From an uncultured Verrucomicrobiae bacterium (lineage in GTDB: Bacteria; Verrucomicrobiota; Verrucomicrobiia; Limisphaerales; Palsa-1400): a DNA stretch of 64,000 bases. Location of the stretch: positions 384,001 through 448,000 of the forward strand of contig CAVPOM010000012.1 of assembly GCA_963707025.1 (NCBI GenBank), written 5' to 3'. This document shows positions 15,305-42,763 of this stretch, piece by piece. The notes below the pieces were generated by a model that ran no database searches, had not been told where the DNA came from, and saw only the letters and a program-made list of their open reading frames with translations. Position 1 is the stretch's first letter; every line of letters starts with the position of its first letter. The position numbers and the translations under genes were made by a program.

Positions 15305-15319
15305 CCACGAGGAGATTTT

Positions 15320-16819: not shown

Positions 16820-16920
16820 TCGCGCCGGAGATTTTCCGCTTGCGGTGCGAGGCGGGAAGGAAAAAACAACGATGCCTGCACCAGCATCGCAGCAAATCAG
16901 CAAAAGAAAGGCGGTAATTT

Positions 16921-17421
16921 ATGGCATTTAGTGCTTATCTTAAAATAGCAACGATCGAAGGCGAGGCCACGGCCAAGGGATACGAGAAAACCATTGAGTG
17001 TGATTCCTACAGCCATCTTCTGTCCCAGCACAGTGGCGGGAGCATGTCCGCCGCCGGCGGGCTGAGCGGCGGACGCGCCGATCATGGCGAGTTTGTCATC
17101 ACCCATTCGCTGGACAAATCGTCCCCGAAATTCAACTTGGCCTGCTGCACTGGCGAACCTCTCAAGGAGATCAACGTGGATGTCTTGCGGGCGACGGGCG
17201 AAGGGGCGGGGACAAAATTCATGAATTACAAAATGAGCGACGTGATCGTCAGTTCGGTTTCCCTGGCCGGCAACTCCAGGGGAGGCGAACCGCTGCCCAA
17301 GGAAGAGGTTCATTTCGCCTACGGCAAGATTGAATGGACCTACACGGAAATCGGCCACGATGGCAAGAAGAAGGGCGATGTCAAGACTGGCTGGAGCGTG
17401 ACCCAAGGCACCAAGGTCTAG
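16921..17421 (+). CDS. hcp: T6SS tube protein Hcp
   Basis: AYLKIATIEGE, LDKSSPK, EEVHFAYGKIEWTY; follows tssC. Confidence 0.95.
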   Translation: MAFSAYLKIATIEGEATAKGYEKTIECDSYSHLLSQHSGGSMSAAGGLSGGRADHGEFVITHSLDKSSPKFNLACCTGEPLKEINVDVLRATGEGAGTKFMNYKMSDVIVSSVSLAGNSRGGEPLPKEEVHFAYGKIEWTYTEIGHDGKKKGDVKTGWSVTQGTKV

Positions 17422-17474
17422 CGGGTGGCGGAGGCCCTCACAAGCAGGGGTGAAAGGCCCGACCCGCACCGAAT

Positions 17475-18293: not shown

Positions 18294-18781
18294 CCCCTTT
18301 CGAGAAACTGCAGCCTTGCCTGCTGGATCGTTTGAGCGACGAGGCGCCGGGTCATTTGCAAGAGAGCCGCAGCGAACGGGTCATTTCGCTGATACGTTAC
18401 AAGGAATCGGTCATGCGGGACTTGCTCTGGCTGTTCAACACGACCGCCTATCCGCCCGACTCGGAGATTTATGAGTTTCCCGCCGCCGCCTCTTCGGTCA
18501 TGAATTATGGCTGCCGCAACTTGTGCGGCATGACCCTGGGCACGATTGATCTGGTGGAATGGGAACGCCATCTGCTGACGGTCGTGCGCAATTTTGAGCC
18601 GCGCATCATTCCGCAGACCGCGTCGGTGCATGCCTCGGTTGACCAATGGAACCGGCATCCCTTGACCTTCGATATCCGCGGCGAATTGTGGGCCAAACCC
18701 ATCCCCGAGCATATTTGGTTGAAAACGGCGGTTGACCTGGATACCGGCCGATTCTTGTTTGGGGACCGGCTGCATGAATAG
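18281..18781 (+). CDS. tssE: T6SS baseplate TssE (gp25-like)
   Basis: LQPCLLDRL, VMRDLLWLFNT, SSVMNYG, NFEPRI, FDIRGELW. Confidence 0.93.
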   Translation: MPDLTPFEKLQPCLLDRLSDEAPGHLQESRSERVISLIRYKESVMRDLLWLFNTTAYPPDSEIYEFPAAASSVMNYGCRNLCGMTLGTIDLVEWERHLLTVVRNFEPRIIPQTASVHASVDQWNRHPLTFDIRGELWAKPIPEHIWLKTAVDLDTGRFLFGDRLHE

Positions 18782-22838: not shown

Positions 22839-22868
22839 AAAACCGCAACCCCTCAACCCCAGACCCGC

Positions 22869-26464: not shown

Positions 26465-28541
26465 ATGCCCGCCACCCAAACACAACGCAACGTAGCCATC
26501 GGCACCGCGCTGGGCGATGATGTGCTGCTCGTCAAATCGGTTGCCATCACGGAACGGCTCGGACGGCTGTTTCAAATCGAGGCGGACCTGGCCAGCGAAC
26601 AGGGATCGGTCAACTTTGACGATATTCTGGGTAAAAACGCCACCATTCGCCTGGAGCTGCCCAATCAGAAAACCCGCTATTTCAACGGCAACGTCAGCCG
26701 CTTTGTGCAGACGCGCATGGAAGGCCGCTACGCCCATTATCGGGCCACGCTGGTTCCCTGGCTCTGGTTCCTCACCCGCACGGCCGATTGCCGCATCTTC
26801 CAGAGCATGAAGGTGCCGGACATTGTCAAACAGGTCTTCCGCGACCAGGGTTTCGCCGATGTTCGCGACGCGCTGACCGGCAGTTATTTGACCTGGGATT
26901 ACTGCGTGCAATACCGCGAGACGGACTTTAATTTTGTCAGCCGCCTCATGGAGCAGGAAGGCATCTACTATTTCTTCGAGCACGAAAACGGCAAGCACAC
27001 CCTCGTCCTGGCCGACGACAAATCCGCCCACAAGCCGTTCCCGGATTACGCCACCATCAACTATCGCGCCGAAGTCACCGGGGTGCGCACGGAGGAATAC
27101 ATTTCCGACTGGATTTTGCAAAAGGAGGTGCAAACCGGCGTCTATAGCCTGAACGATTTCAATTTTACCACGCCGAAAAGTTCCTTGCTGGCCAAGTCGC
27201 AAGTGAGCCAGGCTCATGCCCAATCCAACTTCGAAATCTACGATTACCCTGGTGAATACGACGACCAAGGGGAGGGGCAAAGCCTTTACTCCAAGCTCCG
27301 CATCCAGGAACACCAGGCGCAACACGAAGTCGCCCAGGGCCACGGCAATGCCCGCGGCCTGGCCAGCGGCGCCATCTTCACCCTCGACCTCTTTCCGCGC
27401 AGCGATCAGAACCGCGATTACCTGATCACCGAAACCTACATCCACATCACGGGCGACATCTACGAGGGCCGCGGCGGCGGCGGCCGCGGCGAGTTTTACA
27501 CTTGCGCCTTCAGCGCCATACCGTCGGATGTTCCCTATCGCCCCCCCCGGCTGACGCCCAAACCGCTCATCCAAGGGCCGCAAACCGCCATGGTGGTCGG
27601 AACCAAAGGGGAGGAAATAATGACCGATAAATACGGCCGGGTCAAGCTCCAGTTCCACTGGGACCGCTATAGCAAAGGGGACGAGAACTCCTCCTGTTGG
27701 GTGAGGGTTTCGCAGGCCTGGGCCGGGAAGAACTGGGGAGCCATCTACATTCCGCGCATCGGCCAGGAAGTCATCGTGGAATTCCTCGAGGGGGACCCCG
27801 ACCAGCCGATCATCACCGGCCGGGTTTACAACGCCGTGGCCATGCCGCCCTATGCTTTGCCGGGAGAAATGACTAAGAGGTACTGTCAAGACCAATTCCA
27901 CCAAAGGCGGGCAGGGCTTCAATGAAATCCGCTTTGAGGACAAGAAGGGGGCGGAACAAATCTTCATCCACGGCGAGAAGAACCAGGACATTCGCATCAA
28001 GAGCGATTGCTTCGAATGGATTGGCAACAACCGCCATTTGGTGGTCACGAAGGACCAACTCGAGCACGTCGAAAACAACCGCAATGAAACGGTGGATGCC
28101 GACCACAAGGAGCAAATCGGCAAGGACAGGCATTTGAACGTCACGGGCAAAGAGGCGGTGGCGATTGGCGGCAGCAAATCCCTCACCGTGGGGGGCGACG
28201 TCATTGAGGTGTTCAAAGGCAACCATTCCGAGCAGGTCACCAGCGATTATTATCTCAAGGCCGACAACATCGTCATCGAAGGCATGACCAACGTGACGAT
28301 CAAGGTGGGGCAGTCCTACATTGCCATTGAGGCGGGGGGCATCTCCATCGGCACCAGTGGAACGATGGAGTTGAAGGACAGCGGCGGCTTGACCATCCAA
28401 TCCGACGCCACCGCCACCATCAAGTCCAGCGGAGCGCTCTCGGTCCAATCGCAGGCCTCGGCCGAGCTCAAGGCGCCGCAAACCAGCGTCAAGGGCGATG
28501 CCATGACGACCATCAAAGGCGGCGCCGTCATGATCAACTGA
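26465..28541 (+). CDS. vgrG: T6SS spike VgrG, +1 frameshift near 27880
   Basis: QYRETDFNFVSRLMEQEG, GPQTAMVVG, PRIGQEVIVEFLEGDPDQP; continues as TKSTVKTNSTKGGQGFNEIRFED after deleting one G; ends GAVMIN. Confidence 0.94.
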
Positions 28542-28560: not shown

Positions 28561-28965
28561 ATGCCCAGTCCAAAAAGTGGAAACGCCGGTTCGGCGGTCT
28601 CGCCCGCCGCTCCCGATGCGGCCGTGGACGCCGACGACGCGGTGGCCGGCGACGTTGACCAGGCCCAGGGCGCCTCGGCCACCAAGGCGGCGAGCAGCCA
28701 GGACTCCGTCAAGGTCAAGCCCTACAAACCGCCGCAAACCAAGGAGGAAAAAGCGCAAAAGCCAAGCTGGATCGAGATCGTGATGGTGGATGAACAAGGG
28801 AACCCGGTGCCAAGCCTGGCCTACAGCATCACCCTGCCCGACGGCGAAACCGTGGCCGAGGGCACCCTGGACGACAAGGGCTTTGCCCGCGTGGACGGCA
28901 TCGAACCAGGAACGTGCCAAATCACGTTTCCCGACCTGGACAAGGAAGCATGGGAGAAGGCCTGA
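28561..28965 (+). CDS. 134-aa standalone TTR/carboxypeptidase-regulatory-like protein, copy 1 (putative adaptor)
   Basis: WIEIVMVDEQGNPVP..YSITLPDG..EGTLDDKGFARVDGIEPGTCQITFP; near-identical copies at 33756 and 38083. Confidence 0.75.
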   Translation: MPSPKSGNAGSAVSPAAPDAAVDADDAVAGDVDQAQGASATKAASSQDSVKVKPYKPPQTKEEKAQKPSWIEIVMVDEQGNPVPSLAYSITLPDGETVAEGTLDDKGFARVDGIEPGTCQITFPDLDKEAWEKA

Positions 28966-29060
28966 CAACGCAGAATCTGGTTTGTAGGGAACCCTCGTGC
29001 CCGTCCCGCCCCCGCCCATAGGCGCGCCGGTGAAGTCCGAAAACGCGTCAGGAAAAATGC

Positions 29061-29088
29061 TTGCAAAAAGCCTGAAATGGGCCAAAAT
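29061..29088 (+). promoter_or_regulatory. Possible sigma70 promoter before the cassette-1 LysM gene
   Basis: TTGCAA-N16-CAAAAT. Confidence 0.3.
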
Positions 29089-29123
29089 CAGCCGCAGATT
29101 AGTCGCAGACGCTCTTGTTTTTT

Positions 29124-29867
29124 ATGTCTGAAGACTACGAAGTTCAGGAAGGTGACTGCATCAGCAGCATCGCCCACGAGCATGGTTTCCTCTGGGAAAC
29201 TTTGTGGAACCATTCTGCCAACTCAGGGCTGAACCAGCAGAGGAAGGACCCGAACATCTTAATGGAGGGCGATATTGTCCACATCCCCGACAAGACTAAA
29301 AAACAAGAAAGCGGCGCCACGGAAGCGAAGCACAAGTTCAAGCTCAAGGGTGTGCCAGCCAAGCTCAAGCTCAAACTGATGCGTCCCAAGGCTGGCAGCA
29401 GCCCGCCGGACGCGCCCGCGGCGGATGGTGGCGGCGGGGGTTCCCCCTCGAATGGGGCGGATCCAGATTACAAGGCACCCAAGAACGAGGAAGAACCGAT
29501 GAAGGCAGCGCCCTACGTGTTGGAGGTGGACGGCGCGCCCGTGGCCCAGGGCACCACGGATGGCGATGGTTGCGTGGAGATTCCGATCTTGCCCGACGCG
29601 CGCGCCGGGAAGTTGATCATCAACAAGGGCAGCCCCGACGAGAAAACCATCACGCTTGACCTTGGCGGCATGGACCCAATTGATGAGGTTGCCGGTGTGC
29701 GCAAGCGTCTTGGAAACCTCGGCTATTTCTGCGATGCCGAAGGCCCGGCGGATACATCGGATCTTAAGGACGCGCTGCGAGCATTCCAGGAGCGGAACTC
29801 TCTGGACATCACCGGCAATATCGATGATGCGACCAAAAACAAGCTCAAGGAAAGCCACGGCAGCTAA
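29124..29867 (+). CDS. LysM-like + TTR-like + PG_binding_1 protein, copy 1
   Basis: YEVQEGDCISSIA..DPNILMEGDIVHIP; GTTDGDG; VRKRLGNLGY..ALRAFQERNSLDITG. Confidence 0.8.
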   Translation: MSEDYEVQEGDCISSIAHEHGFLWETLWNHSANSGLNQQRKDPNILMEGDIVHIPDKTKKQESGATEAKHKFKLKGVPAKLKLKLMRPKAGSSPPDAPAADGGGGGSPSNGADPDYKAPKNEEEPMKAAPYVLEVDGAPVAQGTTDGDGCVEIPILPDARAGKLIINKGSPDEKTITLDLGGMDPIDEVAGVRKRLGNLGYFCDAEGPADTSDLKDALRAFQERNSLDITGNIDDATKNKLKESHGS

Positions 29868-29895
29868 ACCGAAATCACTCTCAAAGGATCTTTCC

Positions 29896-31758
29896 ATGCC
29901 TGTCAGCAAAATTAAGATTTCGTTCGTGAGCGTCGGCGTCGCCGATACCGCTGATATCTGGGGCGACGATACGTGGGGATTCTCGGCCAGCATCAACGGC
30001 GACTTCGTGGGCAATGTCATGGATGAGTTCACCGCCAGGGATAAGGGAATTATTGTCCTCCCCGCCAAATGGAGCGCGGAAATCGATGTCAGCCAACAAA
30101 CCAAGTTCATCTACGGTGTGAAAGTGAAGTTTGCCGTCATAAAGTTGGATGGTGTTGACAGTCTTGGAGAGGTCAGCTACGAGTTCAAATACCCTTTTGC
30201 CAGGGGCAAAACGATCTCCATCGATTCGCCCGTGCAGCACGGCCTTTTTGCGGATCACCAATATTACACCCTCCAAGTGAGATTGGATGTGCTGGAGGTG
30301 AAGTCATTTAAACCCAAATTCGGCTCGTGGCAAAACTTCGTGAAAGCCAGCCGCCAGAACAAAAAGAGCAAGACTTTTACGACGGTCTCAGTCAATCAGG
30401 TGCTTCCCCGCGTGGAGGTTTGCCCGGTGGTTCCCAGCCCGGAGTGGCCATCCATGATGCCCAAGCGGCCCGATATCGCCATTAAATCCGGACTGTGGCC
30501 CGGCTTGGATACGCCCCAGAACGCACCCGTCACGCTTTGGCCGCTGCCGCCTCTCAACTCGACCTATAATCCTTCATTAATCCCGATCATCCCCAAGACG
30601 GACCCGGACTTCGCAAAGAAAGTGGCCAAGCTGGCGGTCACCTATTTCGAGCCGGGCGACCTCGATTTGAGCAAGCTGACTTGGAAGGTAAAGACCGGAC
30701 CGTCGGAAATCGTCGGCAGCAACAAGGGCGTCAAGATTAAACTCCTGGGGACGGGGAGTGGCGCCAGCGATCAGTTGACCGAAGTCGAGGTCCGCTGGGA
30801 TGGCCGGAATGGCCCATTGCTCGCCACCTTCCGGGCCTGGGTCGGGAACATCAAGACGGCCATGTACCGCATCAACCTCATCAATGGTCCCACCCCCGCC
30901 ACTAGCGTGGCGTTCCCGCCGCAGGATTACAAAAACCAAGTCGAGATGGCGCGCTGCCTCTACTGGCAGGCAGGCATCGCCCTGGTCCCCGATACCGACA
31001 CGACTTGTTGGGATGGCGCCACCAGGACGGATCCTTCTACTGGTGCGGCGTTGCCCCCGGGAGTGTTTATTGTGCCCGTAACCGACCCAACCTTGACAGT
31101 CAATGTGAATAATTTCGCGCCGACGCCCGCCTCGCGCTTGAACTGCCGGCCCGGCGTTCTGCACGCCGTTTACGTTTGCTCCACGCCCGCCCCCATCCGT
31201 GCGGCGGCCACCGATATACAGGGTGTTGATGGACAGGACTATGCACTCGGCGGCACTCCAAGCTCTTCGTGGGGCCTGCCCAGCGGCGTGCCCCCCGACG
31301 ACCCGGCCGGAACCCTCACGATGAAGACGTTCGCCTCAAGCAATCGTCCATCCAAAAAAGCCGTGGGAGACGATGCTTACGTGACGGCGCGGCACGCCGT
31401 TGATCCGAGTTTCACCGCCGCTTCGATGGCAAAGATCTACGCAGCGGTGTTGCCTTCCGCCTGGACAACCGTTTTCGGGTCGGGCACCGACCCCAATGCC
31501 GGCGTCAACGTAGGTCACGAATTGGGCCATGTCCTTGGCCTCATGCACCGCGGCCACACCAATCAGAGTAAGAAAGGTCCGTTTGGTTCCGATGATAAGA
31601 TCGACTGTATGGGCATGGACGGCGTGGCGCGCGGACATCCATGGCACGAGAACATCATGACCTACGGCTACGCGGGAAATACCGGCGGCGTCACGCGCGC
31701 GCAGGACATTGACCTCCTCCAAACGGCGGTCATCCGCAAACACCCTGCCTGCAAGTGA
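29896..31758 (+). CDS. Putative T6SS effector with C-terminal metzincin metalloprotease motif
   Basis: HELGHVLGLMH (HExxHxxGxxH) and Met-turn ENIMTYG; no signal peptide. Confidence 0.7.
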   Translation: MPVSKIKISFVSVGVADTADIWGDDTWGFSASINGDFVGNVMDEFTARDKGIIVLPAKWSAEIDVSQQTKFIYGVKVKFAVIKLDGVDSLGEVSYEFKYPFARGKTISIDSPVQHGLFADHQYYTLQVRLDVLEVKSFKPKFGSWQNFVKASRQNKKSKTFTTVSVNQVLPRVEVCPVVPSPEWPSMMPKRPDIAIKSGLWPGLDTPQNAPVTLWPLPPLNSTYNPSLIPIIPKTDPDFAKKVAKLAVTYFEPGDLDLSKLTWKVKTGPSEIVGSNKGVKIKLLGTGSGASDQLTEVEVRWDGRNGPLLATFRAWVGNIKTAMYRINLINGPTPATSVAFPPQDYKNQVEMARCLYWQAGIALVPDTDTTCWDGATRTDPSTGAALPPGVFIVPVTDPTLTVNVNNFAPTPASRLNCRPGVLHAVYVCSTPAPIRAAATDIQGVDGQDYALGGTPSSSWGLPSGVPPDDPAGTLTMKTFASSNRPSKKAVGDDAYVTARHAVDPSFTAASMAKIYAAVLPSAWTTVFGSGTDPNAGVNVGHELGHVLGLMHRGHTNQSKKGPFGSDDKIDCMGMDGVARGHPWHENIMTYGYAGNTGGVTRAQDIDLLQTAVIRKHPACK

Positions 31759-31767
31759 ATTCAGCCC

Positions 31768-32579
31768 ATGCCTAAGGACGCTTCCATTTTTCAAACCTCG
31801 AGAGATCCAAAGTTGCTCGTGGACACCGCGGTTGAATTCGCCGCCAGCGAGCAGGCGTCCGACCAGGTGACCCTGGCCGGGGTGCTCAACTCGCCTGACT
31901 TTTTGCAACGTCTGAACACTCCGCACGAGTACGACACCCTGATCACCAAGCAGTTGAGAGTGGCCAGGGTGATCAGGGCTTTGCGCGACAGTCCGCACGA
32001 GGCCTCCAAGCAAACGCTGACCAGGCTTGCGCAAGGCGGCCCGTTTACCGACCACAATTGGCGGCGTCAGGAACTGCTCGTGCGTGCGCTCGTCAGCGTC
32101 CGCCCGGCCACCCCGCCATCTGTCAAGTATTGGGACGAGCAGAGCACACCCGCCGCGGTCAACCGCCATGTCACGATTGAAATGCTGTGTGACAACGGCA
32201 CCGGCCCGGCGTTGAGCTTGCTGGAAAGGAAACTTCTCGATCCCAAGCAGGAAAACATCTACAAGGTTTCATGGATCCATGCCTTCATGCTGCCACATCG
32301 CCACGACTTGCCATTGCTACAGGCGTCGGCGCGCATGTTGACCGGAAGTTTGCCTCCCGATCTCCGCTGCATATTACTGGAAACGTTGTGCGATTACGAC
32401 GAGCGTTGGTATCCTTGTTGTTACCACCCCCAACCCCCGTCGCGCCTGTTGATCAAGGAAGAGGCAAAGCAGGTGCTGCGCGGGATTTGCCGGGCATGCC
32501 CGTGGAAAACATGGAACTGACGCCAGCCTTGAAGCTGGCGGTGGAGAAAACGTTGTTGGAAATTGGCGATCCGAAATAG
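31768..32579 (+). CDS. Helical-repeat hypothetical protein, putative immunity 1a (cytoplasmic); frameshift near 32495
   Basis: Paralogous to 32641-33591; alternate-frame tail VENMELTPALKLAVEKTLL aligns with the paralog's C-terminus. Confidence 0.6.
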
Positions 32580-32640
32580 AAAACGGTTCATCCCGATGCC
32601 TCCCGCCTCTTGGCGCGACTGGCGCAAAAAAAACTTCCCA

Positions 32641-33591
32641 ATGAAAACACAAAGATGGCGCATCTGGAGTGACGATCATCGGCGTCCCGGGGCCTGGCGC
32701 GCGGCGTTTGTGCTTTACGCCATTGCTTGCATGGCGCAAGCTGCCGTCATGTGCTCTGGCGCTCCTCCTCCAACCGGATCTTCCGGCGGTCTCGCCGCTC
32801 CGCCCCTGTCCAACGGGCCGGTCACGCCGGAAACCGAAGCGTTGCTCAAACACCTCGCCTCCTTGGCCGACAGCCAAAGCAACCAAGCTCAGAGTGAGCT
32901 TGCCAAGCAGTTGGCGGACGTCGCCACGCTCGACCGGCTGGACGAGCCGAAAGAACGCAACCAACGAACACCACAGGATCTTCGGGTTGCCCGCGTGTTC
33001 GATCATTTGCGTGACAATCCGTCACACGCCGCCGCGAACACCCTTTCGGCACTCTCCCGCAGTGAGGTGTTCAATTCAGATTGGCGTCTCCAAGCACTGG
33101 TGATTCGCGCGCTGGGCACACAGCGTCCGTTGCTCGCTGAGTCCGCGGCTTTTCTGGATGCCCAAAGCCAGTCTAATTCGCTCAACTTGCAGAATGTAAT
33201 CATCACCCTCATTGAAAATGAGTCGGCCCCGGCGGCCGCACTGCTCGGTCGCAAGTTGGAGGACTCAAACCTCGACGATAATAACAAGATTTCCTGGATA
33301 CGCTACCAGCTCCTGCCCAAGCGCCGGTCGGCGCAATTGCTGTATGGCGTCGAAAAATGGCTTGCCGCCGGCAAGCTCGATGAGACGGTGCGAATCGCCT
33401 TGGTGGATGCTCTTTTTGATTACCGACCGCGCGAGTGGGGTGGCACGGATCTGCCGGCTCCTCCGAGCGAGAGTTCCACCAGTGCAGAGGCGGCCAAGGT
33501 TGTGCGCCGCATCGCGGAGTTGGTGCTGGCTTCCAATTATCCCTCGTCCGTGAGAGATTCCGTCCGTCAAACACTGACAAGATTGCCTTGA
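32641..33591 (+). CDS. Helical-repeat hypothetical protein, putative immunity 1b (N-terminal hydrophobic segment)
   Basis: LRVARV..LRD.P, W..Q.L..RAL...RP and KISWI shared with 31768; AAFVLYAIACMAQAAV segment; start uncertain. Confidence 0.6.
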   Translation: MKTQRWRIWSDDHRRPGAWRAAFVLYAIACMAQAAVMCSGAPPPTGSSGGLAAPPLSNGPVTPETEALLKHLASLADSQSNQAQSELAKQLADVATLDRLDEPKERNQRTPQDLRVARVFDHLRDNPSHAAANTLSALSRSEVFNSDWRLQALVIRALGTQRPLLAESAAFLDAQSQSNSLNLQNVIITLIENESAPAAALLGRKLEDSNLDDNNKISWIRYQLLPKRRSAQLLYGVEKWLAAGKLDETVRIALVDALFDYRPREWGGTDLPAPPSESSTSAEAAKVVRRIAELVLASNYPSSVRDSVRQTLTRLP

Positions 33592-33755
33592 CACCTTGCC
33601 CGGGCCATCACCCAGGAGTGGAATAGATGCTTGTTTGAAAACCCTTGAAGCCGGAATCGCTTCGGCTGAGCCGGCGGTCCGTTCTGGATTTCATTTGGCG
33701 CGGACCAAATGGCTTGACAAAACAAAATAATGGTTGACTTTATTGAACTTGATCT

Positions 33756-34160
33756 ATGCCCTCACCAAAAAGTGGAAATGCCGGTTCGACGGTTTCGCCC
33801 GCCGCTCCCGACACGGCTGCGGAGGCCGACGACGCCGTCGCCGGCGACGTTGACCAGGCCCAGGGCGGCTCGGCCACCAAGGCGGCGAGCAGCCAGGACT
33901 CCGCCCAGGTCAAGCCCTACAAACCCCCGCAAACGCAGGAGGAAAAAAAGAAAAAAACAAGCTGGATCGAGATCGAACTGGTGGATGCCCAAAACAACCC
34001 CGTGCCCGGCGAAGCCTACAGCATCACCCTGCCCGACGGCGAAACCGTCGCGGAGGGGACCCTGGACGAGAAAGGCTTCGCCCGCGTGGACGGCATCGAA
34101 CCGGGAACGTGCAAAGTCACTTTCCCGGAAATGGATGGGAGGTCTTGGACCAAGACGTGA
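33756..34160 (+). CDS. 134-aa TTR-like putative adaptor, copy 2
   Basis: Same length and near-identical sequence to 28561-28965. Confidence 0.78.
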   Translation: MPSPKSGNAGSTVSPAAPDTAAEADDAVAGDVDQAQGGSATKAASSQDSAQVKPYKPPQTQEEKKKKTSWIEIELVDAQNNPVPGEAYSITLPDGETVAEGTLDEKGFARVDGIEPGTCKVTFPEMDGRSWTKT

Positions 34161-34170
34161 ATTCCTTTCT

Positions 34171-34908
34171 ATGAGCAGAAGCAAACCGCCCGAAGACGGC
34201 AAACATCAAGTGGAGGACGGGGAGTGGGCCGGGAGCATTGCCGCCGCCTACGGTTATTTGGATTGGGAGCACGATGTCTGGAAACGGGGCGAAAATGCCG
34301 CCTTGCGTGAACGCCGCCCAAATCCGCGTGTTCTGGGCGAAGGGGATGTTCTGTTTATTCCACCATGGGAAGAGAAGAAAGAATCCTGCGCGACGGAGTT
34401 GAAGCACCGATTCAAGCTCAAGGCGCCCACCGAACTCCTGCGCATCCGGCTGCTGGACCTGGAGGGCAAACCGCTGAAGAACGAAGACTATGCGCTGCAG
34501 ATTGATTACGCTCCAGGCGGAGGCAAATACGAACAAAAAAACAAGCAAACCGATGGCGATGGCTTTCTGCAAGAGTGCATTCCTTCGACCGCGATGAAAG
34601 GCCTGCTCAGCTTTGCCAAAGCGCCGCAAAAGATCCTGCTGCGCCTGGGTTATCTCACTCCGATGGATCTGAATGACAACCCCAAATTGATCCGCGGAGC
34701 ACAGCAGCGCTTGCTGGCCATTGGCTTCGATCCCGGTTCCATTGATGGCTTGGATGGGCCCAGAACCCAAAGCGCCGTCACGGCCTTCCAGCAGTTCTGC
34801 GCCGACAACAAGAACCAGGGCAATGCCCGGATCATTGATGCCGGCCCCGTCAACGGAACCATCGGCAAGATGACCCGGGATGCCTTGTTAAAGTACTACG
34901 GCTGTTGA
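34171..34908 (+). CDS. LysM-like + TTR-like + PG_binding_1 protein, copy 2
   Basis: HQVEDGEWAGSIA..NPRVLGEGDVLFIP; LRIRLLD..GKPL; QTDGDG; QQRLLAIGFDPGSIDGLDGPRTQSAVTAFQ. Confidence 0.8.
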   Translation: MSRSKPPEDGKHQVEDGEWAGSIAAAYGYLDWEHDVWKRGENAALRERRPNPRVLGEGDVLFIPPWEEKKESCATELKHRFKLKAPTELLRIRLLDLEGKPLKNEDYALQIDYAPGGGKYEQKNKQTDGDGFLQECIPSTAMKGLLSFAKAPQKILLRLGYLTPMDLNDNPKLIRGAQQRLLAIGFDPGSIDGLDGPRTQSAVTAFQQFCADNKNQGNARIIDAGPVNGTIGKMTRDALLKYYGC

Positions 34909-34919
34909 ACAGGCTCGCC

Positions 34920-37157
34920 ATGCCCGACAATAACAAACTCCTTCAGGTCAAGATCACCATTGACGACCAGGGCAAAATCGGCAAGGTGGTGCATCCGGAC
35001 TGCAAACTAAACAGGGATGCCGATCTGCCATTTTCCGGAAGACAGTACGGATGGCGCCTGGCCGGTTATAATGACACGGGCCTGGATCTGAAAGCGTTCT
35101 TCGCCCAAGCAGTGGACGTGGCCACCAATTCGCCGGATAAGAAAGAAGATTTTAATACGATCCAATTCCGGGGTCCTGAATTGCTTAAGTTGGATGTTGG
35201 CCACTGGGGGGCCTACCACCGCTGGCGCGAGTACCCCGGCGGCCCGGATGCGGATGACGCTTCCAAGGAGAAAGGCATCCAGCGGGAGTTCGGCCTGATT
35301 GAAAACCATCATGTTTGGCTTTGCCGCTTCAACGGCCAGCAGGCCGTTCCTGCCACGCTCTCCAATTTTCAGTCCGCCAAGGCCACCTTGGCCGCTCAAA
35401 TCCTCAACAACCTGGCTCCGGGCTTTGGCATTGATATCGTCGCAGATGCTCCGGTCACCGATCCGCGCTCGGCCGAGTTGGACAACCAGACCCTTTACGT
35501 CATCTTTCCTGACTTGCACCTGCCCGAAACCCTGCCGGACTTTCCCCTCCCGGCGCAACGTCATCCGGTCGTCGCGGCGCGCCCGACTCCGCAACGCAAT
35601 CCGAACGCCGATGCGCGCAAGGCGTTGCGCAAGTTCCTGGTCAATGCGCAACACCAGCCGGGCTGGCTGGGCGCCAACCCGCTGGGCGAGAGCGACCAGC
35701 AAAAGGTGCAGGCTTATCTGGAAGCCATTCACGTTGAACCCGGGGCACCGCTGCCCGAACAGCCCCTTTGGCCGGTGAAACCAGGCCTGCTTGATTTTTG
35801 GAAGCCGGCGGATTTCTCCCCGGAGCAGTTTCTGGCGGAGAAAGCCATTGTGGACCGGGAAATCATGCTGACCGGCACCTGGTTTTACGCCCGGGGGCCG
35901 GGTTGGAAGAAGGAGGCCCAGACCGATCGCGATACTTGGGCCGCAGCCGACGATGACGGGGACCCTACGCCGGCGATTGAACTCGCCCACTTGCTTTGCG
36001 CCATCAAGAAGGCGCGCCAGGACTCCGCTGCCAACATCCAGGTCATTCAAGTCGGGGACCTTTACGAACTCTGGTTGAACCATGAGTTTCTTTATCGCGA
36101 CTTTCTCGTGGATACCTCCTTCAATGTGAGCGGGGCGGAGAAGCGCGCCTACTTCGGCATCTGGCAACAGGGCAGCAAATCGGATGACTATCAATACCGG
36201 TTGGATGCGGGCTTGCAGAATTCCGCCGGGGGCGGCTCCGCCAAAGAAAAGAGGTATGTTTATAATTATTGGCCCAAGGCGGACATGCTGTTGCGCTACA
36301 GGATCGGCGAACCAATGTATGCAGGACTCGACGACGATGATCTCCTGGAGGAGTTGTCCCTTCGGCCGCCGCAATTGCAGCGGGTGCAGGGCCTCTTGAA
36401 AGACCGGGTGGATCGGGTCCGCGCCTATTCGCTCCACCAACCCAACACGCCGGCTTGCGCGAGTCTTCTCGCCATGGATCCTGCCGTGCTCGATTTCAAG
36501 TATTTCTACCGCAGACAAAGGGACCTGAGGAAAGGCGGGACTGAATACGGCCCGGGCCAGGAGACGGAAAGGGAATATTTTATAGATCCGAATGGCCGCA
36601 AGGAGGTTTTTTGGAATGAAATGATCCTCAAACTTTTGGGTGACCTTGATTTCCGGAATATCGGCGGCAACCATGATGGTTATCGTTCGGATCCGTTGGT
36701 GAACGTGCTGCTGGATGACGTCGATCAGGCGGAGACGGTCATTAGCGAGCCGGGTTTGTGGATCGAACACAGCCATCGTTGGGACGAGTTCAACCGCGAT
36801 GGCATGGCCTTTGGCGCGGGCGCGGCCAACTACGTGTATTATTACTTCACCAGCCTCTGCTCCAAGAGCGCCGGCTGGTGGGAGGATATGCTCGGGCAGC
36901 AGGAGCAGAAATGCTTTGTTCCAGGCGCGGCCTTTTGGTTTGGGGTTGCCAATTTTGGGGACGACCTGAAATGGGCCGCCGACCAGGGCATTCCCGGCAG
37001 CGTCCAGCCTTTCGGCGTTTACGTTTCCGGCCACACCCACAGCGCCAGCCTGGCCCGCATCACCTTCGATTTGCCCCCCAAGTTAAAACAACCCAAACCC
37101 GCCGTGCCTGCTGCCCAGACCGCTGATCCCAACCAAACAGGTCCAACAGGGTGGTGA
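34920..37157 (+). CDS. Putative T6SS effector, calcineurin-like metallophosphoesterase with long insertions
   Basis: Ordered motifs PDLH, VGDLYELW, GNHD, EHSH..D, SGHTH. Confidence 0.7.
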   Translation: MPDNNKLLQVKITIDDQGKIGKVVHPDCKLNRDADLPFSGRQYGWRLAGYNDTGLDLKAFFAQAVDVATNSPDKKEDFNTIQFRGPELLKLDVGHWGAYHRWREYPGGPDADDASKEKGIQREFGLIENHHVWLCRFNGQQAVPATLSNFQSAKATLAAQILNNLAPGFGIDIVADAPVTDPRSAELDNQTLYVIFPDLHLPETLPDFPLPAQRHPVVAARPTPQRNPNADARKALRKFLVNAQHQPGWLGANPLGESDQQKVQAYLEAIHVEPGAPLPEQPLWPVKPGLLDFWKPADFSPEQFLAEKAIVDREIMLTGTWFYARGPGWKKEAQTDRDTWAAADDDGDPTPAIELAHLLCAIKKARQDSAANIQVIQVGDLYELWLNHEFLYRDFLVDTSFNVSGAEKRAYFGIWQQGSKSDDYQYRLDAGLQNSAGGGSAKEKRYVYNYWPKADMLLRYRIGEPMYAGLDDDDLLEELSLRPPQLQRVQGLLKDRVDRVRAYSLHQPNTPACASLLAMDPAVLDFKYFYRRQRDLRKGGTEYGPGQETEREYFIDPNGRKEVFWNEMILKLLGDLDFRNIGGNHDGYRSDPLVNVLLDDVDQAETVISEPGLWIEHSHRWDEFNRDGMAFGAGAANYVYYYFTSLCSKSAGWWEDMLGQQEQKCFVPGAAFWFGVANFGDDLKWAADQGIPGSVQPFGVYVSGHTHSASLARITFDLPPKLKQPKPAVPAAQTADPNQTGPTGW

Positions 37158-37205
37158 CATGCTTTAATCTCGACAAAACCGCTCTTTCATCTCCACATAT
37201 CAGCC

Positions 37206-38036
37206 ATGGATATTCCACACACCAACATAGTTTACCACTTCGAACAGCGCGTCGAAATCATGTATCGCGAATCCGAAAAGACCAGCCCGACCAACGAGGC
37301 CTATCAACGTCAAGGCCTGATCCTCCTCTCCACCGGAGTCGAAGACTCTCGTTGGAAACGGGAGATAGCAGAATACGAAGTCGCGCCGGCTGAACTCGAC
37401 AAAATCCGCCAGCGGGACAAGGTGGATCGTGCTGAACTCCAGAAGGCGCAGCTCAAGGCCCTGGGCGCCCGGCGCACCCCCTTTGGCCTGGACTTCTCCG
37501 TCGAGGTGGACTCTGACATGCACAATAAGGAGGTCGTTATGACGGGCACCCAGGGCGCGCCTCTCCGGCAAGACCTGCTCTACCTTCCCACACTCCTGCC
37601 GGCCGTCCCGGATAAGCGCCCGGAACCCGGGGATGAATGGAACGGCGCCATTGAGATTGCCGGCGGCCCCGCCAGATTCCGCGTTTCCTATACCGCAAAA
37701 ATGCTGGAACGAATAGGTGACGACCCCAAAATCAACGTGACGCTTCAGCCCCAAAGCGCCACCCAGACCGTCAAGGATTTCACTTTCACCCTTTCCCCGC
37801 AAGGCCACTTGGTAACCCTCATTGCCAAAGCCGGCGGTTCGCCGCTATCTTCCGAAGGAGACTTCCGCATCAGCATCCGGGCCAAATTCGACCGCGACGG
37901 CACCCCCGTTGACGTTGAGGTCTTGAACTGCCACCAAACATTCACTCTGACGCGCGTCCCCGCCTCTTTTAATGACGACACTTTCCTGCCGGCAGGATGG
38001 AAATTGCCCCCAGAAAAGAAGCCAAATCCGCCTTGA
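37206..38036 (+). CDS. Hypothetical protein, putative immunity for cassette 2
   Basis: Intact 276-aa ORF directly after the effector; function inferred from position only. Confidence 0.5.
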   Translation: MDIPHTNIVYHFEQRVEIMYRESEKTSPTNEAYQRQGLILLSTGVEDSRWKREIAEYEVAPAELDKIRQRDKVDRAELQKAQLKALGARRTPFGLDFSVEVDSDMHNKEVVMTGTQGAPLRQDLLYLPTLLPAVPDKRPEPGDEWNGAIEIAGGPARFRVSYTAKMLERIGDDPKINVTLQPQSATQTVKDFTFTLSPQGHLVTLIAKAGGSPLSSEGDFRISIRAKFDRDGTPVDVEVLNCHQTFTLTRVPASFNDDTFLPAGWKLPPEKKPNPP

Positions 38037-38082
38037 AAAATCTGTTCATTCCCCGTGGAATACTGACCATTAGATCAAACCT

Positions 38083-38487
38083 ATGCCCAGTCCAAAAAGT
38101 GGAAATGCCGGCACGGCGGTTTCGCCCGCCGCTCCCGACACGGCCGCGGAGGCCGACGACGCCGTCGCCGGCGACGTTGACCAGGCCCAGGGCGGCTCGG
38201 CCACCAGGGCGGCGAGCAGCCAGGACTCCGTCCTGGTCAAACCCTGCAAACGCCCGCAAACCCAGGAGGAAAAAGAGAAAAAACCAAGCTGGATTGAGAT
38301 CAAACCCGTGCATGAGCAGAACAACCCAGTGGCAGGCGAACCCTACAGCATCACCCTTCCCGACGGCGAAACCGTCGCCGAAGGCACGCTCTACGAGAAG
38401 GGTCTCGCCCGCGTGGACGGCATCGAACCGGGAACGTGCCGAATCACCTTTCCGCAACGGGATAAAGAAGCCTGGAAGAAGGCCTGA
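38083..38487 (+). CDS. 134-aa TTR-like putative adaptor, copy 3
   Basis: Same length and near-identical sequence to copies 1 and 2. Confidence 0.78.
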   Translation: MPSPKSGNAGTAVSPAAPDTAAEADDAVAGDVDQAQGGSATRAASSQDSVLVKPCKRPQTQEEKEKKPSWIEIKPVHEQNNPVAGEPYSITLPDGETVAEGTLYEKGLARVDGIEPGTCRITFPQRDKEAWKKA

Positions 38488-38508
38488 GCGCGCAGCATTT
38501 TGCCTTTT

Positions 38509-39180
38509 ATGGCTGAAGACTACACCGTGGAACCAGGCGACTGCATGAGCAGCATCGCCTATGAGCGCGGCTTCTTTTGGAAAACGCTGTGGAACGATTC
38601 CTCCAACGCCGAGCTCAAAGCCAGGCGCAAAAACCCAAATGTGCTGATGACCGGCGACGTCGTCCACATTCCCGACTTGACCGTCAAGAAGGAACCGGGC
38701 GCGACGGAAACCACCCACAAGTTCATGCTCAAGGGCGTGCCGGAGATATTGCGCATGAAACTGCTGGACGCCAACCATCAGCCGCGCGCCAACCTCGACT
38801 ACCTCATTGTCATCGAGGGCAACTCCCGGAAAGGCAAGACCGACGGCAACGGCGAGCTAAAAGAAAGCATCCCGCCCAACGCCAAGGCCGGCAAGCTCAC
38901 GTTCGCGACCTGTCCGGACAAGACCGGCAAGCCGATTCCGGGAAAGCCAAAAAACCAGGTCATGAACTTGCAGTTGGGCAACCTCAATCCCGTTTCCGAG
39001 GTGAGCGGCCTCAAGTCCAGATTGGCCAACCTGGGATTTTACAAAGGCCCGATTGACGATAATCTCGATAAGGCCGCCAAACAGGCCATTCGCGCTTTTC
39101 AGCGCCGGAAGGGCCTGCCGGTGACCGGCGTGGCCGATGAGGCCACCAAGGGCCAGTTACTAAAAATTCATGGCCACTGA
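38509..39180 (+). CDS. LysM-like + TTR-like + PG_binding_1 protein, copy 3
   Basis: YTVEPGDCMSSIA..NPNVLMTGDVVHIP; KTDGNG; LKSRLANLGFY..AIRAFQRRKGLPVTG. Confidence 0.82.
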   Translation: MAEDYTVEPGDCMSSIAYERGFFWKTLWNDSSNAELKARRKNPNVLMTGDVVHIPDLTVKKEPGATETTHKFMLKGVPEILRMKLLDANHQPRANLDYLIVIEGNSRKGKTDGNGELKESIPPNAKAGKLTFATCPDKTGKPIPGKPKNQVMNLQLGNLNPVSEVSGLKSRLANLGFYKGPIDDNLDKAAKQAIRAFQRRKGLPVTGVADEATKGQLLKIHGH

Positions 39181-39263
39181 ACCGGCTTGGCCAGGTGCCC
39201 GGTATGAAAGCGGGCAAATCGCCAAACGACAACAGATTTTGAGAAAATCACAAAAGTAAAAGT

Positions 39264-40661
39264 ATGCCTGATGACCCCGATGCCGGCGCACCGCAGGATG
39301 GTGGCGCACCGCAAGATGGTGGAGCGCCGCAGGATGCCGGAGCGCCGCAGGATGCAGGCGCGCCTGCCGGAGCGCCGCAGGATGGTGGCGCACCGCAAGA
39401 TGGTGGCGCACCGCAGGATGCCGCTGCGCCGCAGGATGCCGCCGCGCCACAGGATGTTGATGCGGCTCGGGGCGATGACACCAATACGACGGCAGATCCT
39501 GTCAATATCAGTCTGACCGTGCAATGCGGTCACACCACCAGCGGCCTCCGTCAGGTAGTCGGCAACCCGGGAGCGGACGGCAGGCTTCAGATTGTGCCGT
39601 CCGACGGGCAGAATAGCAATGCGGTGAGTCTAAAAATCGCGGCGCTCGTCCAAATACAAGGTCAAGAAAACACCGATGGAACCGATACCATTCAAGCCTC
39701 GATTACGGATAACTCCGGCAACGGAGTGCCCAACCCACAAATCGCGATTACCCAGGCCGATGCGCCCTCCGATGGCGACTGGCAGAGCGGCATGAGCGCG
39801 ACGTTGCCGCCCATTCCAAGCCCTGGGGACAACAGCACCGTTTGGCTGGCGGACGCCCAAGCCACCGTGTGGAACGTCTTCGCGGCGGGCAATCCGGATG
39901 ACACTCCCGTAAAAGTGCAAGTGGAGGCATTTCCCGCCTATGCCGTGCAGGGAGCGGTTAATCTGGATTTTTTAGGCGACGTCACCAAGAAGATCAACGA
40001 CGCTTGCAAGAATGTCATCAACCCACTGACCGGCGGGACCGTTACCATAGAACCGCAGTTTCAGTTGCCGCAAGGAACGCTGCAGGTCTCGTGCGGCTGG
40101 AAGGAAAACAGCGACTGGCAGGCCTATTACGGTTGGAGCGTCGCTGCCGGACTCAACCCATTTTTTGGCATGGGAGTGAAGTTTGGGGTGGACTTTGTGG
40201 CGATAATCGGACTCTGCGCGGACATCCCTCCCATGATAACCAAGTATGCAGCCTCCCTTGTCCTCAGTGTGAAGGTGAGCGGCCAGGTGGGCATCAGCGG
40301 CACGGTCAGTTGTAATGGACCGCTTAGTTTTACGGGAACATTAAATCCCAATGGACAGATTTCCGTGGAGTTGGCCCTGACCGCGAAGGTCGGAAATGAA
40401 AATGTGTTGAGCGCCTCCATCTCGGGGGGCTGCACGGCGGGGATCAAGTGGGCCGGGCAAATTCCCCAGCCGGCCTCGCCCGGCGGAAGCGTGGTCTTGA
40501 AGCACACCCTCAATTTCACCGGCATCGTCCTGACCGTGACGATTGTCACCACCGCCTTTTCATGTGAGATGACCAACACCCAAAACTCGGTGAGTTTAAT
40601 GTCCGCCGGTGATCCGGTGGCCTTGGATGACATCACCTTGATCGGCGCTGACAACAGTTAA
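39264..40661 (+). CDS. Hypothetical protein (putative cargo 3): acidic repeat N-terminus, beta/Gly-rich C-terminus
   Basis: 465-aa ORF in the effector slot of cassette 3; no recognisable catalytic motif. Confidence 0.55.
   Translation: MPDDPDAGAPQDGGAPQDGGAPQDAGAPQDAGAPAGAPQDGGAPQDGGAPQDAAAPQDAAAPQDVDAARGDDTNTTADPVNISLTVQCGHTTSGLRQVVGNPGADGRLQIVPSDGQNSNAVSLKIAALVQIQGQENTDGTDTIQASITDNSGNGVPNPQIAITQADAPSDGDWQSGMSATLPPIPSPGDNSTVWLADAQATVWNVFAAGNPDDTPVKVQVEAFPAYAVQGAVNLDFLGDVTKKINDACKNVINPLTGGTVTIEPQFQLPQGTLQVSCGWKENSDWQAYYGWSVAAGLNPFFGMGVKFGVDFVAIIGLCADIPPMITKYAASLVLSVKVSGQVGISGTVSCNGPLSFTGTLNPNGQISVELALTAKVGNENVLSASISGGCTAGIKWAGQIPQPASPGGSVVLKHTLNFTGIVLTVTIVTTAFSCEMTNTQNSVSLMSAGDPVALDDITLIGADNS
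39279..39455 (+). repeat. 18-bp tandem repeat encoding D(A/G)(G/A)APQ, about 9-10 units
   Basis: gatggtggcgcaccgcag-type units, in frame, no spacers. Confidence 0.9.
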
Positions 40662-40667
40662 AATTCC

Positions 40668-41438
40668 ATGATACATCATTTGCTTAAACTTGTCACCGGC
40701 GGGCTGACCGCCAGCGCCGGCATTAATGGCGCTCCCCTTTTGATTGATTCGACCGGCATCGGGCTGAATGGGACCATGCCGGCCAACCCCTGGCTCAAAC
40801 CCACGGGAAACACCCTCAGTATTTCTCTGGCCAGGCCGCCGGCCACGCCCAACGTCAACCTTGCCGAAGTCCAGGTTCGCGCCGAGGTTTACACCGTCCA
40901 GTCCGGTTCCCGCACCATGGAGCCGGAAACATGGCTGGCCAGATTCGCGTGGCATGCGGGCGATCCGGCCCCCTTGCCGGTGACTCGCGAGATTGCCTTT
41001 GAAATTGCGGCCCCGCCGCCGACCAGCCTGTGGGCCGAAGCGGCGCGGGTCAATGACCTTTCCGCGACGGACCAGCAACAGTTGAGGACGCTGATGCAAA
41101 AGCTGGCCGGGGCCATTCTAAGCCGCGACCTGGATGGCATCTCCGTTTTGCTGGATTACAAAACAATGGACTGCGCTTTGGCCAACGGCCAGGACCCGGA
41201 TCGCATGCGCCAGGTCATTCGCGAGCTGTACACAACCGACATGTTCTCCGAACCATCACTCCGGGTGGAAGGGGCTGGAGCAAACGAGTTGGAATTTAAG
41301 CTGGTCGCCGGAGGCCAGGCCGTCTGGGTATTCCAAGGTCCGGGCAAACCCGCCTTGGTGGTGGTGTCGCCCAACAAGCGGTTCGGCCTGACGGTCTTTG
41401 CCGCCAAAACCGCAGGCGCCTGGAGGATTGTCAGATGA
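40668..41438 (+). CDS. Hypothetical protein, putative immunity/partner of cassette 3
   Basis: Intact 256-aa ORF 6 bp after the cargo gene. Confidence 0.55.
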   Translation: MIHHLLKLVTGGLTASAGINGAPLLIDSTGIGLNGTMPANPWLKPTGNTLSISLARPPATPNVNLAEVQVRAEVYTVQSGSRTMEPETWLARFAWHAGDPAPLPVTREIAFEIAAPPPTSLWAEAARVNDLSATDQQQLRTLMQKLAGAILSRDLDGISVLLDYKTMDCALANGQDPDRMRQVIRELYTTDMFSEPSLRVEGAGANELEFKLVAGGQAVWVFQGPGKPALVVVSPNKRFGLTVFAAKTAGAWRIVR

Positions 41439-41504: not shown

Positions 41505-42239
41505 ATGATTCAAGCGCCACTCGTTAAAATCACCCAGCCTCCCAGCGAGGTTGCGGCCAAATACCAGCCGCATCCGGAAGCCAAGGCCTTGCTGCAGCCG
41601 GCGCAGACGCCGACGCAATACGCGGAGGCGTTGCAAAAGGGAAGCTTTTCGCACGACCAAATTCATTTCCTGGCGCACGGGATGCCGGAAAGGGAATCGG
41701 TCGGCTGGGCATGCAAAAGTTCCGCCAAAGTGTCCGATAAACTGGAACCGGCGGACAAGTCTGCCTTGGGCGCGGCCCAGGCATGGGTGAAAAATCCAAC
41801 GCCCGCCAACCAAGCGGCGGCGGCGGCGGCAGCCGCCAAAACAAATTATCAGGGGCCGGGCGCCTGGGCGGCGCAAGGCGCGGCTTGGGCCAAGGCTCCA
41901 GGCGCGCCGGCCGCGCCCGCGGCGCCGAATCTCACCGGCCACGCTGTGGCGGGTTCGGTCATGCTGGCGGCCGCCAAGTCCGCCGGCAAAATGCCGGCAA
42001 TCCAGCCTCCCGCGCTCGCGGCGCCAGCCATGCCGAAAGTTCCCACCCTCCAAGCGCCCCAGGTGGCCGCGCCGAAAGTTCCCGCGCTCCAACCGCCCCA
42101 GATGGCCCTGCCAAAGCCGCCGGCCCTCTCGCCCCCAAAGCCGCCCGCGCTGCCCGAACGGGTTGAAACTGCCAAAATCCACCAGCCCTTCATTGATCTG
42201 GGCCACGGCATCGCCAGCGGCCAGCACCCGTTTATTTGA
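41505..42239 (+). CDS. DUF6931-like T6SS-associated protein with Pro-rich insert
   Basis: FLAHGMPERESVGWAC, AAQAWVKNPT, PGAWAAQGAAW, FIDLG; next to PAAR. Confidence 0.65.
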   Translation: MIQAPLVKITQPPSEVAAKYQPHPEAKALLQPAQTPTQYAEALQKGSFSHDQIHFLAHGMPERESVGWACKSSAKVSDKLEPADKSALGAAQAWVKNPTPANQAAAAAAAAKTNYQGPGAWAAQGAAWAKAPGAPAAPAAPNLTGHAVAGSVMLAAAKSAGKMPAIQPPALAAPAMPKVPTLQAPQVAAPKVPALQPPQMALPKPPALSPPKPPALPERVETAKIHQPFIDLGHGIASGQHPFI

Positions 42240-42463: not shown

Positions 42464-42763
42464 ATGCCGATGGCCGCTCGTTTAACCGACATGCATGTCT
42501 GCCCGATGGTGACGCCGGCTGTGCCGCCTGTTCCCCATGTCGGCGGCCCCATTACCGGCCCGGGCGCTCCCACCGTGTTGATCGGCGGCATGCCTGCGGC
42601 AGTGGTGGGTGACATGGTTGTTTGTGTCGGTCCGCCCGATACGATTGCCATGGGTTCAACCACGGTGTTGATTGGCGGCAAACCGGCCGCCCGCATGGGT
42701 GACCCCACTGCGCATGGCGGTTCGATTGTTCTTGGCTGTCCGACAGTGATGATTGGCGGATGA
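42464..42763 (+). CDS. PAAR spike-tip protein without C-terminal extension
   Basis: MAARLTD.HVCP, GMPAAVVGD, GKPAARMGDPTAHGG. Confidence 0.95.
   Translation: MPMAARLTDMHVCPMVTPAVPPVPHVGGPITGPGAPTVLIGGMPAAVVGDMVVCVGPPDTIAMGSTTVLIGGKPAARMGDPTAHGGSIVLGCPTVMIGG

Follow-up and report, generated by a model that had tools for sequence, protein, structure and literature searches.

A repeated, detached VgrG tail as the probable first tier of an adaptor chain at a Verrucomicrobiae type VI secretion locus

C-terminal extensions of VgrG that carry transthyretin (TTR)-like domains bind type VI secretion system (T6SS) cargo (PMC10433429, PMC11796386, PMC11148199). In VgrG1-Tle1 of enteroaggregative Escherichia coli (PDB 6SJL) and VgrG17-Tae17 of Acinetobacter baumannii, the terminal TTR-like domain binds a strand of the partner (PMC10433429, PMC11796386). 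The RIX-TTR proteins are stand-alone secreted adaptors, such as Vibrio WP_157622110.1 for Rte1; their N-terminal part serves trafficking, and an N-terminal strand of the partner completes the TTR domain at the C-terminus (residues 73-134 in that protein). The module is also found on VgrG and PAAR (PMC10435454). Stand-alone genes for LysM, PG_binding_1 and DUF2345 domains lie at vgrG loci, alone or fused between vgrG and toxin; co-immunoprecipitation (co-IP) revealed that LysM bridges VgrG and toxin and that a split DUF2345 bridges likewise, and PG_binding_1 was noted in Chromatiaceae (PMC10673891). In binary effectors with a MIX co-effector, a secreted non-toxic partner is required for loading the effector on VgrG (PMC10433429). 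In Vibrio cholerae arrays, variable effector modules lie behind conserved T6SS genes, with homologous recombination contributing (PMC5361080). Here we analysed a stretch of 64,000 nucleotides, the window, from an uncultured Verrucomicrobiae bacterium (contig CAVPOM010000012.1, positions 384,001 to 448,000), which contains a T6SS locus with three tandem cargo cassettes. We consider it probable that the first two genes of each cassette, gene 1 and gene 2, encode a secreted two-tier adaptor chain running from VgrG through gene 1 and gene 2 to the effector.

The three cassettes lie between the sole vgrG and the sole PAAR gene of the genome (6.96 Mb in 18 contigs, 88% complete), and no further copies of vgrG, PAAR, gene 1 or gene 2 were found elsewhere in it. 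A contig scan with the alignment of the three gene 1 copies found only one locus, owing to its narrow patterns. Coordinates and domain order agree with an earlier sequence-only reading of this DNA, which had described three repeated cassettes between a single vgrG and a single bare PAAR. The fixed four-gene layout of that reading holds for the shared gene order, but cassette 1 has five genes, of which 31768-32520 and 32641-33591 are paralogous. Gene 1 was also said to be 405 bp and nearly identical in every copy; the length is correct, but the copies share 80-81% identity in protein and 84-86% in DNA. Gene 2, as claimed, keeps its domain order while diverging to 29-41% blastp identity, and genes 3 and 4 are indeed unrelated across cassettes, with no blastp match below E 0.7. 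The coordinates of all features are listed in Table 1.

Gene 1a starts 19 bases downstream of the vgrG stop at 28541. The gene 1 family comprises 1533 clusters of similar length, and among the best 120 longer homologues (831 matches in total), 109 contain the C-terminal repeats of VgrG followed by an entire gene 1. In the fused forms, VgrG passes via its terminal motif directly into the gene 1 tail, while in the split forms VgrG ends about where gene 1 begins, with a short gap between them; the junction sequence is common to both. Gene 1 of the window is homologous over its whole length to VgrG C-terminal extensions, yet it is not covalently joined to VgrG. This comparison indicates that gene 1 is the C-terminal extension of VgrG, a conserved tail and a TTR domain, split off and encoded as a gene of its own, which the sequence-only reading had overlooked. 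The tail is still conserved in the split forms (mean column conservation of 0.74 over residues 1-32), suggesting that it still binds something, presumably the spike.

The model of gene 1 revealed disorder in residues 1-52 and a beta-sandwich with pLDDT above 80. The fold is prealbumin/TTR-like, and the TTR domain of VgrG1 (6SJL) ranked second in Foldseek with an E value of 9e-3. Superposition against 6SJL gave a VIA Z score of 5.8 and an rmsd of 3.1 over 57 aligned residues, and the top fold matches were of CnaB/TTR type with Z scores of 5.8-6.8. At the sequence level no PDB match was found for gene 1, the best E value being 0.02. Proteins of three to six tandem gene-1-type TTR domains were also observed (P0241-P0246, P0251, P0265 and P0351), one of which has an added FHA domain and a segment consisting of LysM plus the docking region described below.

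The PG_binding_1 domain of gene 2 scored above the cut-off in all three copies, and LysM was weak. The gene 2 model, with a pLDDT of 86, contains a LysM-like domain, a conserved segment of lower confidence, a TTR-like domain and PG_binding_1, and the protein has no signal-like N-terminus. The gene 2 family comprises 426 clusters. Neither family has a name, and members of both are labelled 'hypothetical', 'VgrG' or 'amidase'. The unit of LysM plus the conserved segment is also fused to large unrelated proteins; fused gene-2-type forms were found in G081, L093, P0481 and P0444, the last of which is Hcp fused to an entire gene 2. Without LysM, the segment forms the N-terminus of one family behind gene 1 (3 of 2367 open reading frames (ORFs), 9-14 bits), but these matches are suggestive only, since the profile gave three chance matches of 5.7-8.5 bits among 15088 genome ORFs.

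As the segment was seen both without LysM behind gene 1 and fused to large proteins, docking of it on gene 1 was expected beforehand. The complex prediction for gene 1a (residues 45-134) with gene 2a scored 0.81, compared with 0.00 for the best of three controls, and the runs agreed on at least 96% of the contacts with a partner pLDDT of at least 86. The mark used for this score is attained by 116 of 157 solved pairs and by 2 of 215 mismatched pairs, and is only a rough guide for the alignments used here. In the predicted interface, gene 2 residues 57-78 pack on gene 1 residues 69-80 and 114-134, which supports binding of gene 2 to gene 1 through this docking segment.

The motifs assigned earlier to a metzincin and a metallophosphoesterase were found in gene 3a (HELGHVLGLMH and MTY) and gene 3b (DLH, GDLY, GNHD, EHSH and GHTH), respectively; by its motifs, the latter is a putative member of the metallophosphoesterase family. 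Genes at positions 3 and 4 have no match in Pfam, NCBIfam or PHROGs, and 'effector' and 'immunity' are positional labels. In PDB sequence searches gene 3b gave no match and the 4a family nothing interpretable. The pairs are kept together elsewhere: 3a/4a in G081, L031 and L075, where the 3a homologue lies behind gene 2, and 3b/4b in L015. In a wider set, the products of genes immediately following a complete gene 2 comprised 42 distinct proteins, which fell into 24 families. Among 60 neighbour proteins scanned, amidase, M23, PAD-like, OmpA-like, lipase, reprolysin-like, LysM and HEAT matches were found, and about half had none. The gene 2 tree requires 5 changes of cargo family, compared with 13.1 after shuffling (reached in 0 of 200 shuffles), based on the 23 labelled of 42 rows; in 17 of these 23 the nearest tree neighbour has the same cargo family, and the three gene 2 proteins of the window fall in three separate clades. 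This clustering indicates that gene 2 travels with its downstream gene.

The survey of the distribution covered 79 loci from metagenomes, a single one from Nitrospirales, and G081, giving 83 distinct gene 1 cores after exact duplicates were merged and near-duplicates retained. Upstream of gene 1 lies vgrG in 42 cores, with 2 fused, 9 at a contig edge and 30 with other or unlabelled genes; downstream lies a gene-2-type gene in 49 and a second TTR gene in 1, with 11 at an edge. T6SS genes are present in 25 of the 26 long loci (at least 7 kb, with the near-duplicates L049 and L077 dropped), vgrG in 23 and a gene-2-type ORF in 20, in line with the earlier expectation that the pair occurs near T6SS loci. 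Of the 26, 5 contain at least two copies of gene 1 and 10 at least two copies of gene 2; gene 1 stands without gene 2 in 6. These counts are biased, because the loci were chosen via gene 1, except two plasmids. In an order-level sample, gene 1 was found in 7 of 401 genomes, all 7 among the 35 with vgrG, so that most vgrG-bearing relatives lack gene 1; a phylum sample gave 2 of 401. G081 has three gene 1 copies, and one of its cassettes is homologous to cassette 1 of the window. On a Ca. Thiodictyon plasmid, a VgrG-gene 1 fusion is followed by gene 2, a small PG-binding protein, an unannotated 390-aa protein and a HEAT protein. A plasmid of Eleftheria terrae carries an orphan cassette (L097:11409-15431) in which the gene 1 TTR domain stands behind a different N-terminus, followed by gene 2 and an unknown protein of 924 aa, with vgrG elsewhere on the plasmid, far from the cassette. 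The module is real, widespread and linked to T6SS across several phyla.

Like the VgrG-TTR internal adaptors, gene 1 adopts a TTR-like fold and in many genomes forms part of VgrG; however, the extension here is a separate gene, present three times, whose product is predicted to bind a second adaptor rather than a toxin. With the RIX-TTR proteins, gene 1 shares a small, stand-alone form, a C-terminal TTR domain and a module that is also fused to VgrG. Its N-terminus, in contrast, is a VgrG tail and not the arginine-rich helical RIX domain, and it is encoded within the main T6SS cluster of a bacterium that is not one of the Vibrionaceae, with a second adaptor interposed. By composition and model, the arginine-rich two-helix RIX domain was not found in gene 1, where residues 1-55 hold 0-1 Arg and no helices. 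The gene 2 domains stand alone between vgrG and toxin and also occur fused, as in the LysM/PG class of PMC10673891, and gene 2 occurs in Chromatiaceae (Thiodictyon); gene 2 may overlap this class, including Kalk_10460, the protein tested there. The available part of that paper describes neither the LysM-segment-TTR-PG architecture nor the family of gene 1, and it gives no account of the docking segment or of tandem arrays. Stand-alone LysM/PG-binding and TTR adaptors had thus already been reported at T6SS loci (PMC10673891, PMC10435454), a precedent missed in the earlier reading. Unlike the MIX modules, the locus has no MIX match and would have two or three chained partners instead of one, and unlike the V. 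cholerae arrays, in which old effectors are displaced while immunity genes remain, entire cassettes are retained in tandem.

The usual adaptor families were correctly noted as absent in the earlier reading: no cassette gene matches DUF4123, DUF1795/DcrB or DUF2169 at E 0.05 in Pfam and NCBIfam. PIPY proteins (DUF4150; a PAAR-like cone needing DUF2169, PMC11883445) were rejected as a candidate, as no match to DUF4150 was found in gene 1, whose model is a beta-sandwich. The Tvp complexes (PMC13373197) and the DUF4123/helix-turn-helix adaptors (PMC11582642), in the parts of these papers available, belong to different families. A term search of the accessible text of a 2026 accessory-factor review returned no occurrence of TTR, transthyretin or LysM (PMC13584744). 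Each part has precedent, in VgrG-TTR/Tle1, the RIX-TTR secreted adaptors and the stand-alone LysM bridging proteins, while neither a free, repeated VgrG tail nor a chain of TTR adaptors was found described in the literature searched, which covered few subscription journals. In our best reading, the module acts like a secreted TTR adaptor, yet is not RIX, Tap, Eag, DUF2169 or PIPY.

Based on these comparisons, we propose the following mechanism, in which the link between gene 1 and VgrG, the link between gene 2 and cargo, and toxicity are steps that we infer. Gene 1 likely rides on the single VgrG spike, where its conserved N-terminal tail would bind non-covalently. Gene 1 is predicted to grip gene 2 residues 57-78, completing its own TTR beta-sandwich. 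Gene 2 in turn likely binds the enzyme of its own cassette, and its TTR domain may bind an N-terminal hairpin of the cargo with a V-A-R...N-T-L/I-like sequence. The LysM-like and PG-binding domains might retain the cargo in the periplasm of the target cell, and gene 4 would provide immunity. Gene 1 would be a generic socket with specificity coming from gene 2, and one spike would carry several unrelated effectors. The two-protein loading module of the sequence-only reading finds backing in the T6SS linkage, the predicted gene 1-gene 2 interface and the tracking of cargo by gene 2, but the pair is not obligatory. A third adaptor tier is possible: a small PG-binding protein could serve as such. 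This protein of 160-225 aa was observed between gene 2 and a protein of about 390 aa with a HEAT protein in L020, L044, L083 and L098, and the 390-aa protein of L083 is reprolysin-like. A broader claim, doubtful as a whole and offered tentatively, is a plug-and-socket code of the spike. In it, the VgrG tail was freed and multiplied so that up to three different copies would each occupy one of the three faces of a VgrG trimer. From each copy would extend a series of two or three TTR sockets, with short hairpins as their plugs: gene 1 first, then gene 2, in some cases a third, small TTR/PG-binding protein, and last the enzyme. Gene 1 would double as the recombination site at which cassettes are added, and the code would be shared by Planctomycetota, Acidobacteriota, Myxococcota, Nitrospirota and Proteobacteria.

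Several results weigh against the adaptor chain. The N-terminal 52 residues of gene 1, which would contact the spike, were modelled at pLDDT below 50, and the TTR fold match is non-specific, with a best Z score of 6.8, none at 8 or above and no Foldseek E value below 0.001. The complex prediction covered the cassette 1 pair alone, and its score may be due to likeness to solved TTR-strand complexes such as 6SJL. Co-clustering of gene 2 with cargo can result from linkage alone. Gene order is variable, being rearranged in L001 and L061; gene 1 is followed by PAAR in 6 of the 83 cores and by unlabelled genes in 16, and the long locus L047 has no T6SS gene within it. None of the three cargo genes of the window matches a known toxin family. 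The cargo hairpin motif is treated as a lead: many cargoes have an N-terminal V-A-R...N-T-L/I-like stretch, which was defined post hoc, and NT[LIV] occurs in 7 of 24 families, compared with a background of 3.3%, but did not survive correction (Bonferroni 0.2). A four-letter form has a nominal p of 1e-9 in 5 of 24 families. When one family was left out at a time, the motif was recovered at the same site with p of at most 0.02 in 6 of 10 hand-picked families, including that of gene 3b, and at this level in 0 of 14 other proteins; it failed for the gene 3a family and gene 3c.

Among other explanations, the LysM-like domain of gene 2 might itself load this protein on VgrG or on the baseplate, with gene 1 as an optional helper or stabiliser. 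The LysM protein that bridges VgrG and toxin by co-IP in Ketobacter stands alone (PMC10673891), a phage tail tube initiator (9g8s) is the best PDB match of the gene 2 LysM, with an E value of 8e-4, and gene-2-type genes outnumber gene 1 in 6 of the 26 long loci, a set whose choice by gene 1 undersamples gene 2 without gene 1. However, we regard this arrangement as unlikely: the predicted interface is the segment after LysM and not LysM itself, that segment is also found without LysM behind gene 1, and surplus gene 2 copies could share one gene 1 socket. It is very unlikely that genes 1 and 2 act as chaperones in the cytoplasm, folding and loading the cargo and being removed from it ahead of firing in the manner of Tap and Eag. 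Classical adaptors are described as non-secreted in PMC10433429, whereas gene 1 is often fused to VgrG and gene 2 once to Hcp, both of which are ejected, and two wall-binding-type domains would make little sense in the cytoplasm. Highly improbable, finally, is a cargo of non-toxic secreted or surface enzymes with accessory partners, anchored to the wall by gene 2. Such a role would accord with the lack of matches to known toxin or immunity families among the cargo and partner genes of the window, and with the OmpA-like proteins among downstream genes. Against it, pairs of enzyme and small partner are kept together across genomes and lie between vgrG and PAAR, the cargo set includes wall amidases and M23 peptidases, and gene 2 lacks a signal-like N-terminus.

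The repetition of gene 1 itself can be read in more than one way. The copies of the window form one clade with a support of 85 (FastTree, 134 columns), and DNA identity falls to background directly outside the ORF ends. In L044, two gene 1 copies that are 99% identical stand ahead of different cargo. The pattern is consistent with gene 1 having been duplicated or converted internally, or with its capture from close relatives, and recombination inside gene 1 is the likely route by which cassettes enter or are shuffled. The copies are only 57-73% identical in four of the five other multi-copy loci (G081, L020, L083 and L092), which speaks against this. The idea of gene 1 as a recombination anchor therefore keeps its sharp homology borders and the clustering as points in its favour, but an exchange event was not demonstrated. 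If only the first gene 1 were functional, the others would be scars of cassette capture, with later cassettes sharing the first socket or being stored or silent. Homology confined to the gene 1 ORF, the clustering of the copies, the repetition of gene 2 and cargo without gene 1 in many loci, and codon differences that change the amino acid about as often as they are silent (26-27 versus 18-24 per window pair) would all agree with such scars. We nevertheless find it quite unlikely, because all three copies are full length with the conserved residues of the family largely intact, and 5 of 26 other long loci also contain gene 1 in repeated, intact form.

Table 1. Coordinates of the locus features. 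Positions are those of the window unless a locus is named.
Feature	Position	Strand	Remarks
T6SS core cluster	4215..25583	+	tssK, tssM, tssA, tssB, tssC, hcp, tssF, tssG and tssH matched (NCBIfam)
vgrG, short type	26465..28541	+	ends ...MIN-stop, without C-terminal extension
gene 1a	28561..28965	+	VgrG C-terminal extension, detached; tail (1-52) disordered, followed by a helix and a TTR-like domain (about 67-134)
gene 1a TTR-like socket (residues 69-134)	28765..28962	+	residues 69-80 and 114-134 are the predicted interface
gene 2a	29124..29867	+	LysM-like domain, docking segment, TTR-like domain, PG_binding_1
gene 2a docking segment, residues 57-78	29292..29357	+	consensus KxExxATExxHxF; predicted to complete the gene 1 beta-sandwich
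gene 3a, putative effector	29896..31758	+	metzincin-type zinc motif and Met-turn; weak matches in the PDB (E about 0.09)
gene 4a, putative immunity protein	31768..32520	+	frame change near 32500 versus homologue, outside read coverage
gene 5a	32641..33591	+	paralogue of 4a (35%), hydrophobic N-terminal stretch, start codon uncertain
gene 1b	33756..34160	+	
gene 2b	34171..34908	+	29-35% blastp identity to 2a and 2c
gene 3b, putative effector	34920..37157	+	calcineurin-like metallophosphoesterase motifs; residues 66-83 are a candidate docking hairpin
gene 4b, putative immunity protein	37206..38036	+	homologue also behind the 3b homologue in L015
gene 1c	38083..38487	+	
gene 2c	38509..39180	+	
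gene 3c, putative effector, family unassigned	39264..40661	+	N-terminal linker of 18-nt repeats
gene 4c, putative immunity protein	40668..41438	+	without family match
DUF6931 protein	41505..42239	+	E 6.6e-28
bare PAAR protein	42464..42763	+	without extension
small PG-binding protein	L020:14494-15015; L044:11041-11565; L083:7746-8285; L098:12654-13163		

In the core cluster, tssL, tagF, tagJ and tssE are putative assignments from position and appearance. The assembly has a frameshift in vgrG near 27880, which is likely an assembly error, as one short-read contig of run X1 (depth 2) differs from the assembly there by a one-base indel; 23 of the 48 X1 contigs placed on the window match it at 99% or above. 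The tssM gene (6434-10295, plus strand) is represented by two ORFs that overlap, and its reading frame changes near 8150-8250, where another assembly indel is possible. TssG (20627-22666, plus strand) has 679 aa, compared with about 340 in most relatives, and its C-terminal region contains a Cys-rich, zinc-finger-like stretch. Genes at 10292-13593 (plus strand) in the T6SS cluster carry Ig-like (Big_9) and FGE-sulfatase-like domains, and large unusual accessory genes are present in the G081 cluster too. In the interval between tssH and vgrG (25590-26450, plus strand) lies a lysozyme/endolysin-like gene with weak Pfam and PHROG matches; an unassigned gene of 230-310 aa occupies the equivalent site in several related loci. 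The DUF6931 gene precedes PAAR and recurs near PAAR or after cassettes in L080, L020, L031, L087, L090, L093 and L094. Positions 1-3271 (plus strand) hold the end of a large repeat protein and then what is presumably a two-partner-secretion outer-membrane transporter, and the G081 cluster is flanked by a similar pair. Directly after PAAR, at 42856-43585 (plus strand), lie transposase-like fragments that are presumably IS630-like, followed by a minus-strand NRPS/PKS-like cluster.

The known solutions by which a T6SS carries several unrelated cargoes are several VgrG/PAAR paralogues or one adaptor per effector, whereas this locus has a single VgrG and a single bare PAAR. If the proposed chain is true, a free, repeated VgrG tail combined with a cargo-specific second adaptor would be a different solution. 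As markers, genes 1 and 2 lead to a large number of candidate effectors, so far uncharacterised, in soil and sediment phyla that have received little study.

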